Source: Minisyncoccota bacterium
GTDB lineage: Bacteria > Patescibacteriota > Minisyncoccia > Minisyncoccales > RBG-13-42-11
Direction of reading: 5' to 3'
DNA length: 32,469 nt
Assembly (NCBI GenBank): GCA_028687495.1
Contig: JAQUAA010000002.1
Span: forward strand, 1-32,469
In this document: in pieces, positions 13,486 to 20,346 of the stretch
Position numbering within the stretch: the stretch's first letter is position 1
Layout: each line of letters opens with the position of its first letter
Translations under genes and position numbers: made by a program
The notes under the pieces: generated by a model
Seen by the model: the letters and a program-made list of their open reading frames with translations, nothing else
The model's database searches: none
Told to the model about the DNA's origin: nothing

Positions 13486-13688
13486 ATGATCACCTCCTTA
13501 AGTTTTATACTCCAGCCTACCTGCGAGCGCCGAAGATCTACGGCATAAAGCTTTGATCTGCGGCTGTCAGCTCTAAGTTTTAAAGGAGGGATAACTTAGA
13601 ATCCATCCTCGAGTAAATAACAAAGTTACCTACTCGATTAAGCTACTCGCAGATAGACTGGAAGATAAAACTTGACGACAAACTGAAT
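13486..13688 (-). promoter_or_regulatory. Structured ~200-nt 5' leader (riboswitch-like / cis-regulatory RNA candidate, class unknown)
   Basis: P1 is 16 bp (13646-13661 with 13512-13527). P2 is a 13-bp hairpin (13609-13637). P3 consists of interleaved helices (13601-13608/13585-13592 and 13593-13600/13572-13579). P4 pairs 13529-13538 with 13555-13564. All four wobble positions in P1 and P2 are G.U on the minus strand and A.C on the plus strand. Confidence 0.6.
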
Positions 13689-13701
13689 AATATATTATAC
13701 T
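13672..13701 (+). promoter_or_regulatory. Candidate mfd promoter TTGACG-18-TATACT, -10 ends 7 nt before the ATG
   Basis: TTGACG is at 13672-13677 and TATACT at 13696-13701. The ATG is at 13709 and there is no SD. Its -10 overlaps the -10 of the opposing promoter. Confidence 0.45.
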
Positions 13702-17892: not shown

Positions 17893-18147
17893 ATGAATCC
17901 GTTGAACAATCTTAAAGAAACAAAAAAAGCCGTGAAAGAAAAAATGCTTACCTTGATTTTGGCTGGATTCGGATTAGTAGCTGCTTTGGCCTGGAACGAC
18001 GCTATCCAAACCTTGTTCAGAGTTCTCTTCCCAAAAAGCGATGGAATAATTGGAAAGTTTGTTTATGCGTTATTGGTAACTTTTATCGTTGTTTTTATTA
18101 CTCTGCAGTTGAGAAAAATTTCTGGAGAAGACAACCAAAAAAATTAA
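17893..18147 (+). CDS. Small two-TM membrane protein (hypothetical, 84 aa)
   Basis: The track ORF starts at 17857, inside the tRNA. The first ATG beyond the tRNA is 17893 (MNPLNNLKETKK...). Two hydrophobic helices are present: LTLILAGFGLVAALAW and FVYALLVTFIVVFITL. Confidence 0.7.
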   Translation: MNPLNNLKETKKAVKEKMLTLILAGFGLVAALAWNDAIQTLFRVLFPKSDGIIGKFVYALLVTFIVVFITLQLRKISGEDNQKN

Positions 18148-18737
18148 CCTCTTAAGATTTTAGGTTTTTCTCCGGTAAAATCGATAACCCTAGAGAGTTT
18201 TAATGGTTTTAAGTTTCCCGCGTCAATAACCAGATCGGGCTGATTTTTTTTGTTTTGGAACTGATTCAAAACGTCCTTGATTTTATTTGAAGCAAGTTCC
18301 CCTGAAATATTAGCTGAGGTTTGAGTAAGAGGACGACTGAAATTATCCAATAAATCGTTCAATAATTTATAATCTGGAACCCTTAAACCGATTTTCCCAA
18401 ACTCACAAACAATACCTTTGGGAAATTTCTTTTTTGCTTTGAAAACCGCTATTAATTTACCCGGCCAATTTTTCTTTAAAATTTTTTCTTGTTTTCCGTT
18501 AATTATGGCCAATTTTTTTGCCGTTTTTAAGTTTTTAACAAAGATTGAAAGCGGTTTTTGAAAACTTCTTTTTTTAATTTTAAAAATTCTTCTTATGGCA
18601 GAATCGTTTTTTGCATCGCAAATTAATCCGTAAACCGTATCCGTCGGACAAACTAAAACTTTTCCTTTTTTTAGAGAAATTATCGCTATTTTTATCACTT
18701 CTCTTAAATTTTTCTGATTTGTTTTAATAATTCTCAT
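18144..18737 (-). CDS. tsaC: L-threonylcarbamoyladenylate synthase, YrdC/TsaC type (t6A pathway)
   Basis: VLVCPTDTVYGLICDA and TQTSANISGE are YrdC-domain motifs. At 197 aa it has no Sua5 C-terminal domain. Confidence 0.85.
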   Translation of the reverse strand: MRIIKTNQKNLREVIKIAIISLKKGKVLVCPTDTVYGLICDAKNDSAIRRIFKIKKRSFQKPLSIFVKNLKTAKKLAIINGKQEKILKKNWPGKLIAVFKAKKKFPKGIVCEFGKIGLRVPDYKLLNDLLDNFSRPLTQTSANISGELASNKIKDVLNQFQNKKNQPDLVIDAGNLKPLKLSRVIDFTGEKPKILRG

Positions 18738-18770: not shown

Positions 18771-18809
18771 AAAAAAGTGGAGCCCTGCGCTATAAAGCAT
18801 GCAGGGCTC
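18771..18809 (-). terminator. Rho-independent terminator at the 3' end of the orphan RNA locus (just upstream of tsaC)
   Basis: Minus-strand GAGCCCUGC (18801-18809) pairs perfectly with GCAGGGCUC (18780-18788), 9 bp with a 12-nt loop. CAC-UUUUUU follows (18771-18779). Confidence 0.65.
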
Positions 18810-19023
18810 ACGAGGCGATGTAGATAACAATCCACATTGAGAGTAAGCTTAAACAGCTCCTCCCCTTGATGTTTCGTATTCAGTTGTAGTAACTCAAGGA
18901 AACTTAAGGGGAAAACGGATGATTACCGTACCTCCTTCCTATGAATTTTGTCACCTGAATAGTTCAAGCAAATAACATCACCTCCTTTCAATGGAAAACG
19001 GGTAAAAAGAGCGGAAGCAGGAC
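18810..19023 (-). ncRNA. Candidate ~210-nt non-coding RNA (or attenuator leader of tsaC), class unknown
   Basis: The region is bracketed by two minus-strand terminators. Hairpin AUGUGGAU-UGUU-AUCUACAU (18818-18837) has a G.U that would be A.C on the plus strand. A long-range helix pairs UAUUCAG (18955-18961) with CUGAAUA (18877-18883) and CUUGA (18964-18968) with UCAAG (18865-18869). Three GGAGG motifs are present. No ORF with an acceptable start follows any of them. Confidence 0.35.
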
Positions 19024-19053
19024 GAAAAAATCCTACTGTGATTATAGTAGGAT
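19024..19053 (-). terminator. Rho-independent terminator of the nucleotidyltransferase gene
   Basis: Minus-strand AUCCUACU (19046-19053) pairs perfectly with AGUAGGAU (19030-19037), 8 bp with an 8-nt loop. It runs directly into UUUUUU: the last stem U at 19030 plus 19025-19029. Confidence 0.65.
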
Positions 19054-19086
19054 ATAAAAATAAAAATTTACTGTCAAGTGGATAAC

Positions 19087-20346
19087 TTAACTCTTTTTCT
19101 CAAATTTGAATTGAGTAAATAATTGCGTATTGTCTTCGATATTTTCAAAAACTAAAGTACCCGGGCCGATCGTACAACCCGACCCGATTAAAACTCCCGG
19201 CATGCTTCCAGAATGAATTCCGAAACGAGAATTGTCGCCAACCACCATTCCTAAATATGTCAACCCGGTATCTATTTTTTTACCCTTGACGAGTGATTTT
19301 ATATTCTGCCTATCGATTCTTCTGTTGGCGGTAATAAAACCTGCGCCAAAACGGCAATTTTTTCCAATCACCGAATCGCCGAAATACCCGGAGTGAAAAT
19401 GCGTTCCCTCCTGGACCAAACAATCTTTAATTTCAGTAAATGAACCGGTCAGAACGTCTTTTTCCAGATTGACCGGTCCCCTGAAAACATTGCTGGCTCC
19501 GATTTTGCAATTATCTCCGATGAAACAAGGACCGTTGATCACCGTATTGTCGCCGATTGTCACGTTATCACCGATGAAAACGTTACCCTTGATGACAACG
19601 TTCTTGCCCATTTGGGCACTGGGAGAAATATAATTTTCAAAATCTTTTGATTTAATTCTCAAAATTTCCAGGAGTTCCCAGGAATATTTCAAGGAAGGTA
19701 TATCTTTTTCCAGAATAATTACTCCAGTCGATTTTTCTTTGATATAAAGATTAAGCGCATCGACAAAGTCCTCCGGATGGTGTTTTTTAATTTTCTGATA
19801 ATAGTCGAAGAAATCCGGCTGCAAGAAATAAGCGCCGAGAACTTTTATGTTCGAAGGTTCCTTTCCCTGCTCGGGATTTTCAACTATTTCAACCGCTCTG
19901 TTGTTTTCCATTCTCAGAATGCCGTATTCCCACGGCGTATGGGTTTGGACGCCAGTCAAAACGGCTTCGGCTCCGGTCTTATTAACCAAGTTTAAAATAC
20001 TGTCAACGATTTCGCCGGCAACGAATTTGTAGGGCCAGAAAACAAAAAATGGTTCTTTGATGTATTGTCTGGCTTGGAAGATGGCGTTGCCCGTTCCCTG
20101 AGGGCTTTCTTGGACAACGAAAGAAAGTTTAACGCCCAGGTCCCCAACCATGGAAAGTAGTTCATCCTTCAGAAGAGAGTTCGGGCTTATAACCAAAACT
20201 ATATCCTTTATCCCTTTTTCGGATATGCTTTTTATCGTCCAATAAACCAAAGAACGCCCTGAAATTTTAATCTGGGATTTATGCTGTTTATTGTTCAGCG
20301 GCCAAAAACGCGATGACTCGCCGGCAGCTATTATTATTGCTTGCAT
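19087..20346 (-). CDS. Bifunctional-type sugar-1-phosphate nucleotidyltransferase with C-terminal left-handed beta-helix acyltransferase domain (GlmU-like, archaeal-type architecture)
   Basis: The N-terminus IIIAAGESSRFWPL is a GxGxR NTP-transferase motif. The C-terminus carries hexapeptide repeats (IKGNVFIGDNVTIGDNTVINGPCFIGDNCKIG...). Substrate is not determinable by eye. Confidence 0.75.
   Translation of the reverse strand: MQAIIIAAGESSRFWPLNNKQHKSQIKISGRSLVYWTIKSISEKGIKDIVLVISPNSLLKDELLSMVGDLGVKLSFVVQESPQGTGNAIFQARQYIKEPFFVFWPYKFVAGEIVDSILNLVNKTGAEAVLTGVQTHTPWEYGILRMENNRAVEIVENPEQGKEPSNIKVLGAYFLQPDFFDYYQKIKKHHPEDFVDALNLYIKEKSTGVIILEKDIPSLKYSWELLEILRIKSKDFENYISPSAQMGKNVVIKGNVFIGDNVTIGDNTVINGPCFIGDNCKIGASNVFRGPVNLEKDVLTGSFTEIKDCLVQEGTHFHSGYFGDSVIGKNCRFGAGFITANRRIDRQNIKSLVKGKKIDTGLTYLGMVVGDNSRFGIHSGSMPGVLIGSGCTIGPGTLVFENIEDNTQLFTQFKFEKKS

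Follow-up and report, generated by a model that had tools for sequence, protein, structure and literature searches.

A predicted structured RNA gene with an invariant, self-paired Shine-Dalgarno box in one family of Parcubacteria

The stretch of DNA analyzed here (the window: 32,469 nucleotides of the Minisyncoccota bacterium assembly GCA_028687495.1, contig JAQUAA010000002.1) contains a 349-nt intergenic gap between a GlmU-like gene and tsaC, and this gap holds the locus that is the subject of the present work, called here the SD-box RNA. Comparative sequence analysis indicates that positions 19042-18771 of the minus strand form a gene of their own, ~270 nt long, which encodes a structured non-coding RNA and has its own sigma-70-type promoter and intrinsic terminator, and it is very probable that this is a real, separately transcribed non-coding RNA gene. 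The sole invariant element of the RNA is a 12-mer, AAGGAGGUGAUG, which is a full-length Shine-Dalgarno (SD) box with no usable start codon. The RNA constitutes an uncatalogued structured family with clear covariation, restricted to one family of the Candidate Phyla Radiation (CPR)/Parcubacteria, and its defining feature is a frozen, self-masked SD box in a lineage without an anti-SD sequence.

Loss of the anti-SD from the 16S rRNA of a subgroup of Parcubacteria is already known and published (PMC9297842). The observations below indicate that selection still keeps a perfect, full-length SD box in genomes that have no 16S anti-SD, before a few genes and also, without any gene, in a structured RNA whose partner strand is held by pairing only. 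The question of what reads SD boxes where the ribosome cannot is thereby made testable, and a concrete candidate pair of RNAs can be named, the SD-box RNA and the anti-SD-loop small RNA (sRNA) encoded in the same window. The region upstream of tsaC is also reread, tsaC being most likely leaderless rather than attenuated.

Genomes of relatives are designated by G numbers and fetched loci by L numbers; G000 is the genome of the window (546 kb in 44 contigs, the window being contig 21, C21), and coordinates of the RNA refer to the minus strand of the window.

Homologues and secondary structure

Homologues comprise 13 distinct sequences from at least eight genera, all within one family (G000, G001, G003, L067, L038, L044, L046, L051, G015, G018, G016, G008 and G021). 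The comparison in relatives that had been proposed with the initial annotation of the gap was carried out by several routes. A DNA search of 40 relatives returned G001 only (81% identity across the first 122 nt). The GlmU-like gene and tsaC adjoin in most family genomes and the spacer between them varies; in G001 and G003 it is non-coding, 350-410 nt long, and has blocks in common with G000, and synteny alone yielded G001, G003 and L067, the last taken from contigs of TsaC relatives with no RNA motif used. Pattern and motif scans of metagenomes and species genomes added L038, L044, L046 and L051. A covariance model (R1) built from G000 and L067 recovered the earlier homologues and added G015 and G018, as well as three reduced forms: G016 has only the promoter, the box, the closing helix P1 and the terminator, and G008 and G021 have these plus a short P2. 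The model finds a single copy and no paralogues in G000 and, with whole-genome E-values, four clear carriers in the family. Such a model was needed, as MAFFT on its own, applied to 3-7 homologues, produced structurally incorrect alignments without a usable consensus. A match of the family-wide model in G006 was discarded as a false positive, only a similar terminator having been aligned. Diverged intergenic RNAs with a promoter, GGAGG tracts and a terminator occupy the same site in G013, G024 and L065 and allow no confident alignment.

The structure was tested on a model-fitted alignment of 12 sequences; since such an alignment leans toward its model, the helices were rechecked sequence by sequence. 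Paired cells amount to 90.6%, as against 37-52% when the partners are slid by 1-3 columns, and 32 of 51 pairs have changed on both sides, as against 4-10 in the slid controls; none of 500 shuffles reaches the observed values. The minus-strand fold of the predicted transcript has a free energy of -89.8 kcal/mol (z -5.3, equaled by 0 of 200 shuffles), and the plus-strand fold is 13 kcal/mol poorer (-76.4 kcal/mol, z -4.0), in keeping with the abundance of G.U pairs on the minus strand.

The 12-mer forms the 5' strand of P1, a long-range helix (18987-18976 with 18820-18812) whose 3' strand abuts the terminator. The best partner of the box is the 24 nt before the terminator in 11 of the 13 homologues, with pairing energies of -7.5 to -15.6 kcal/mol, and the 3' strand differs mainly by C/U facing G and A/G facing U (helices 2-3 of the alignment); P1, as read from these sequences, has one strand frozen and the other constrained only by pairing. 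The box is identical in G000, G001, G003, L067 and G015, none of which was found by a box motif (G015 was found via R1, both of whose source sequences contain the box), and has a single change each in G018 and G021. A U/C-rich tract 10-25 nt upstream of the 12-mer, identified by eye, is an alternative local partner, as in the minimum free energy (MFE) fold of G000, and the box may switch between partners. A different long-range helix suggested initially (UAUUCAG/CUGAAUA together with CUUGA/UCAAG) is not kept in L067, L046 or G003; it is P1 that is conserved instead.

The three purine tracts noted in the initial annotation (18977-18988, 18928-18939 and 18857-18867) are all present, the first being the box; further GGAGG-type tracts number one or two per RNA, and each faces a pyrimidine strand in a covarying hairpin. 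In P3 (helix 5), the imperfect hairpin already recognized at 18939-18911, 95% of the cells are paired and six of nine pairs have changed on both sides; of 10 homologues folded explicitly, nine form it stably (-7.5 to -10.4 kcal/mol) and G018 weakly (-3.1 kcal/mol), and the inner stems differ between clades. The third tract lies in Ha (helices 7 and 8), which is 97-100% paired with all seven pairs changed on both sides. Hb, likewise placed correctly from the start (18837-18818), is conserved and covaries in six homologues (UGGA/UCUA, CGGA/UCCG, UGGA/UCCA, AGAG/CUUU, AAAG/CUUU). The variable hairpin P2' (helix 4) has 78% of its cells paired, and the conserved motif ACAAYUGAAUA may pair with UAUU just after the box. 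Coordinates are collected in Table 1.

Table 1. Coordinates of the SD-box RNA, its neighbors and related features (contig positions refer to G000)
Feature	Position	Strand	Description	Basis
GlmU-like gene	19087-20346	-	419 aa, NTP_transferase and hexapeptide; upstream neighbor of the RNA	
Terminator of GlmU-like gene	19024-19053	-	hairpin 19053-19030 and U run ending 19025/19024	
Predicted promoter of the RNA	19077-19049	-	-35 TTGACA 19077-19072, 17-nt spacer, -10 TATCCT 19054-19049	promoter scan
SD-box RNA (predicted)	19042-18771	-	structured non-coding RNA, ~270 nt	
5' hairpin of the RNA	19016-19037	-	3' arm of upstream terminator re-pairs with 19023-19016	
SD box AAGGAGGUGAUG	18987-18976	-	invariant, 5' strand of P1; a range from 18988 matches the tract of the initial annotation	homologue comparison
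P2'	18951-18971	-	variable hairpin right after the box	RNAalifold on G000 and L067, compensatory pairs
P3	18911-18939	-	hairpin, second SD-like tract against U/C-rich strand	covariation and explicit folds
ACAAYUGAAUA	18877-18887	-	motif, UUGA ahead at 18897-18894	conservation
Ha	18839-18865	-	hairpin, third purine tract against pyrimidine strand	covariation
Hb	18818-18837	-	hairpin (AUGNGGA...), abuts the P1 3' strand	compensatory changes
P1 3' strand CAUCGCCUC	18812-18820	-	anti-SD-like, directly before the terminator	homologue comparison
Terminator of the RNA	18771-18809	-	9-bp G+C-rich stem 18809-18801/18788-18780, U6 at 18776-18771	
tsaC extended -10 and start	18752-18744	-	TGaTATACT, 6-nt gap, ATG 18737-18735	sequence reading
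tsaC/Sua5	18144-18737	-	downstream neighbor of the RNA in G000	
Anti-SD-loop sRNA	~13690-13500	-	promoter 13721-13694; same window	
Genes led by AAGGAGGTGAT	C3:3517, C7:7907, C21:13499, C27:13721, C29:23793		five copies ahead of real starts	

Transcription unit and the start of tsaC

Both minus-strand terminators reported initially are present in the gap, and so are the two perfect hexamers TTGACA (19077-19072) and TATAAT (19046-19041). The accompanying statement that there is no canonical promoter did not hold up, however: the TTGACA is followed after 17 nt by TATCCT, and the layout TTGACA-17-TAnnnT is kept in 12 of the 13 homologues by regular expression and, by eye, in the thirteenth (G016). 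In the homologues these promoters sit at or just past the stop codon of the GlmU-like gene. The RNA is predicted to start near 19042, in the loop of the terminator of the upstream gene, and the 5' arm of this terminator overlaps the -10 hexamer, so an RNA started at its own promoter would lack that arm; G001 has the same three-arm layout. The 5' hairpin that the remaining 3' arm would form has eight pairs in RNAalifold on G000 and G001, three of them with one-sided changes, and appears in the MFE fold as well.

The predicted transcript ends 33 nt ahead of the ATG of tsaC (18737). A G+C-rich terminator closes every homologue (helix 10, 99% paired, four pairs changed on both sides), and in every homologue a further promoter lies behind it. 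In most of the tsaC-linked homologues (G000, G001, L038, L044, L051, L067 and G003) a TGnTATAcT stops 6 nt short of the tsaC ATG; in G016 the distance is 9 nt, and L046 has no clear -10 ahead of tsaC. Genome-wide in G000, -10-like hexamers peak 6 nt before the ATG (25, of which 10 with TGn, vs. a background of ~4), and leaderless mRNAs seem common in this genome. Since tsaC has its own extended -10 at this leaderless distance of 6 nt, it would be among them. The RNA is followed by tsaC in G000, G001, G003, L067 and G016. In G015 and G018 the next gene is sugar-kinase-like (its N-terminus has a DGGG-type motif, read by eye only), and G008 and G021 have yet another gene there, led by a TTGACA-17-TATAAT promoter of its own; the constant neighbor of the RNA is the upstream GlmU-like gene, not tsaC.

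The absence of an open reading frame (ORF) from the RNA strand of the gap, as first described, is borne out, none there exceeding 22 aa. The Rfam search proposed at the outset was also performed: at gathering score Rfam 15 matches only two tRNAs in the window, and at E<=10 it assigns the RNA region to no family, the top match (E=1.2) falling far under its own cut-off. RNase P RNA and tmRNA are detected in G000. An identity as 6S RNA is ruled out, as RF00013 has no match in G000 and the consensus fold is a multi-hairpin domain, not a rod. An identity as signal recognition particle (SRP) RNA is excluded as well: SRP RNA (RF00169, RF01854) and the Ffh M domain (PF02978) were not found in G000, RF00169 and PF00448 (the SRP54-type GTPase domain, which covers Ffh and FtsY) occur in 0 of 26 family genomes, and loss of Ffh and 4.5S RNA from Parcubacteria is already published (PMC4508563; a search of that paper found no mention of FtsY).

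SD boxes elsewhere in the genome and the 16S tail

The initial annotation had pointed out that the first purine tract shares an 11-mer, AAGGAGGTGAT, with positions 13489-13499 of the window; this is confirmed, and the search for further copies suggested there finds 8 in G000 against ~0.2 expected (an estimate from base composition). Five of the copies lie 5-9 nt ahead of real starts, those of proteins of 63, 51 and 96 aa, a sigma-like protein of 303 aa and a protein of 332 aa, and the 63-aa and 332-aa genes retain the box in G001. This excess, the position before real starts and the retention in G001 argue for selection on the box as a signal, and this in genomes with ribosomes that pair poorly with it. 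GGAGG stands at the SD position in only ~5% of G000 genes.

Two more copies, of AAGGAGGTGATGCT, have no usable start (C29:17677 on the minus strand and C33:9827 on the plus strand); one of them comes right after a terminator, ~110 nt before a gene with its own SD. They are unmatched by the covariance model and may be further SD-box leaders or sRNAs. In a 5' untranslated region of another genus (L096; G023 C3, ~35551) the order is SD box, ~20 nt, CAACUGAAUAA, then a real SD and the ATG of a signal-peptide protein; both conserved motifs of the RNA thus recur together in one mRNA leader.

In nine family genomes (eight genera; L077-L085), among them the RNA carriers G001, G003 and G016, the 16S rRNA ends in GGAUCACUACAUUUCU or a close variant, with CUACA replacing CCUCC. 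A hairpin comes next, and the four loci that were followed further show a terminator after it, not 23S. The tail has no CCUCC behind it, and of the four loci examined three have none at all in the sequence fetched (~0.4-1.5 kb upstream of the 16S end). To a canonical 16S tail the box is perfectly complementary over 12-13 nt (-23 kcal/mol), whereas with the family tail pairing falls to -9.5 kcal/mol. SD helices are assumed not to form in Parcubacteria lacking the anti-SD, yet h26, which contacts the SD helix, stays conserved there (PMC9297842).

A candidate reader of the box and the rival explanations

The first of two readings offered initially was a stand-alone RNA that titrates a factor recognizing GGAGG-type motifs, either the 16S 3' tail or a CsrA-like protein. 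The stand-alone RNA gene is upheld by promoter, terminator, covariation and non-coding character, but neither proposed partner is: the nine 16S tails have no CCUCC, and CsrA (PF02599) was not found in G000, in searches whose controls respond. For these same two reasons the best available reader of the box appears to be the anti-SD-loop sRNA, which has an invariant open loop, AUCCCUCCUUU (also written CCCUCCUUU), and is encoded in G000, G003, G015 and G018, which all carry the SD-box RNA as well; the loop of the G003, G015 and G018 homologues reads AUCCCUCCU(U/A)(U/A). No published description of such an sRNA in CPR bacteria was found in the literature. The predicted pairing of its loop with the 12-mer consists of 8 bp and 3 bp around one bulged U (-13.2 to -22.6 kcal/mol), and the second and third tracts pair with it at -12 to -13 kcal/mol. 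Duplex predictions between long sequences of the two RNAs are uninformative.

A second contact was considered and rejected. In G000 a 9-nt complementarity links the segment ACAACUGAAUA to the 5' end of the sRNA, the sRNA sequence UAUUCAGUU (13682-13690) being perfectly complementary to AACUGAAUA (18877-18885), but this match is not kept in G003, G015 and G018 and is probably due to chance (estimated p ~0.2).

We tentatively propose, with rather less than even confidence in the full statement, that the SD-box RNA is an SD mimic or decoy read by the anti-SD-loop sRNA. Through its boxes it would imitate the few real SD-led mRNAs of the lineage, the anti-SD-loop sRNA being the most likely reader; the SD-box RNA would bind and buffer this sRNA, or be bound by it, and its own helices would set the amount of available box. 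A broader version, in which the SD/anti-SD interaction survives off the ribosome as an RNA circuit, with the loop sRNA reading the remaining SD boxes and the SD-box RNA, its 2-3 masked boxes forming SD/anti-SD-like helices within the molecule, serving as buffer or switch, is unlikely; in such a circuit the SD-box RNA might even fit the conserved SD-helix pocket of the ribosome as a preformed SD helix.

Several points weigh against this account. The promoter, the 5' end and the size of the transcript are predictions. The UGAU part of the box suits the canonical 16S tail better than the sRNA loop, and the pairing between the two RNAs has no covariation behind it, both sides being invariant. The boxes are base-paired within the RNA and not displayed, unlike typical sponge sites. 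The 16S rRNA of G000 itself is not in the assembly, its missing CCUCC being deduced from relatives. The RNA is patchy and, in the sequences compared, family-restricted: under strict filters, so that the result reads as not found rather than as absent, the covariance model has no match in 147 genomes from ~80 other families of the order, and the whole cassette is exactly absent from the close relatives G014/L069, L073 and L064.

In G014 and L069 (compared with L067) and in L073 (compared with G001) the two flanking genes are joined at 3-4-nt microhomologies, which fits microhomology-mediated deletion. The two genes also adjoin directly in L064, whose TsaC is the closest (78% identity), and other genomes have an unrelated gene at the RNA site. 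The precise absence of the cassette from relatives implies that loss of the RNA has occurred more than once and that some lineages can do without it. In L016/L069 (vs. L067) and L073 (vs. L002) the missing segment includes the promoter of tsaC as well, the junction repeats being TAA and ATAG.

Among the alternatives to an sRNA-read decoy, direct binding to the ribosome is unlikely. Here the box, or the helices P1, P3 and Ha, would dock on the 30S subunit, the RNA acting as a stabilizer like the STAB-SD element, as a standby or hibernation RNA, or as an SD-helix mimic fitting the SD-helix pocket. Perfect complementarity to the canonical tail, conservation of h26, and the five real genes that carry the box at canonical spacing, from which something in initiation seems to read it, are consistent with such a role; against it stand the CUACA tails of the nine family genomes with their weak pairing, the lack of any ORF to be stabilized on the transcript and the rarity of GGAGG at the SD position genome-wide.

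A protein sponge is similarly doubtful. It would follow the logic of CsrB with a different protein, titrating an RNA-binding protein that recognizes GGAGG sites on SD-led mRNAs, and it would explain why most homologues have two or three GGAGG-type tracts and why the same motif is conserved before a small set of genes. The motifs lie in helical strands rather than in loops, however, CsrA is missing from G000, and the locus has no linked gene that is a candidate for such a protein.

It is also improbable, to much the same degree, that the RNA has an unrelated structural role, as 3' untranslated region or insulator of the GlmU-like gene or as a scaffold, its SD-likeness being a by-product of purine/pyrimidine helices. 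The constant attachment to the 3' end of the GlmU-like gene, the lack in G003 of a terminator between that gene and the RNA, and the retention of little beyond P1 and the terminator in the reduced forms G016, G008 and G021 would suit this role. An exact 12-mer frozen while its partner strand drifts points instead to a sequence-specific function, as does selection of the same 11-mer elsewhere in the genome.

The second initial reading, a cis-acting attenuator or riboswitch leader controlling tsaC through the 18771-18809 terminator, has very little probability left: the terminator is close to tsaC and P1 resembles an aptamer closing helix beside it, but tsaC has its own extended -10, the downstream gene varies by genus, tsaC abuts the upstream gene directly in relatives without the cassette, and no antiterminator strand was seen by eye or in the folds, a systematic search not having been made.

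A mini-ORF or leader-peptide mRNA translated from the AUG inside the box (ML[FIL]...) is just as hard to sustain. An AUG or GUG in the box does open a short frame in 12 of the 13 homologues, and G008 and G021 differ there by one conservative and one synonymous change; but the frames run to 4, 5, 6, 7, 8, 11, 32 or 42 codons, their first codons overlap RNA helices, and 2 nt separate GGAGG from the AUG, compared with 5-9 nt at the real starts that this box precedes, in line with the initial remark that the SD tracts have no usable start. A coding locus is more generally rejected: frame lengths are not conserved, substitutions in close pairs fall evenly over the three codon positions with no 3-periodicity, and indels are frequent. 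Reading of TGA as a sense codon was considered by eye and dropped, as the frames differ between G000 and G001.

Comparison with known RNAs

The 5' stabilizer STAB-SD of the Bacillus cry3A leader, GAAAGGAGG, was reportedly described by Agaisse and Lereclus in 1996; binding of 30S subunits to it through the 16S anti-SD protects the downstream ORF. The SD-box RNA resembles it in that a perfect SD, with an identical GAAAGGAGG core, lies toward the 5' end of the transcript and has no start at a working distance. The differences are that the 16S rRNA of this family has no CCUCC, that there is no ORF, and that a long-range helix holds the box.

Decoy and sponge RNAs include CsrB and RsmZ for CsrA, 6S RNA for RNA polymerase, and base-pairing sponges of sRNAs. 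Like these, the SD-box RNA is a predicted stand-alone non-coding RNA that repeats the signal of the targets (2-3 boxes) and could titrate their reader. It departs from CsrB/RsmZ in that G000 has no CsrA and the GGAGG tracts are the 5' strands of P1, P3 and Ha, not loops; from 6S RNA in having neither the rod nor the RF00013 match; and from decoys and sponges generally in that its proposed reader would be another sRNA and its boxes are paired. The anti-SD-loop sRNA occurs in the same genomes, is the same type of promoter-to-terminator unit and has sequence complementary to the box, but it is the opposite partner, with CCUCCU shown in a loop. The SD-box RNA is limited to a single family and has often been lost.

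In type I toxin mRNAs such as hok and aapA1 a long-distance interaction between the 5' and 3' ends hides the SD. Similarly, the SD box near the 5' end of the present RNA is sequestered by a strand at the 3' end, beside the terminator; here, however, the frames of 4-42 codons include neither a conserved toxin ORF nor a hydrophobic peptide, and no antisense partner gene was noticed at the locus, where no specific test for one was made. As in riboswitch or attenuator leaders, a multi-helix domain has a closing helix that abuts an intrinsic terminator, and the differences from these leaders are the lack of an Rfam match, the lack, by eye and in the folds, of an alternative antiterminator, and a variable downstream gene with its own promoter.

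Two minor observations concern loci of other relatives. L064:2265-2939 contains a LAGLIDADG-type ORF (a faint Pfam match) beside a DUF5654 gene; the window has no such ORF at the corresponding place. Before tsaC of another relative, L066:1340-1500 has a T-arm-like GGAGAGTTCGATTCTCTCC and a terminator, and may be a tRNA-like gene.

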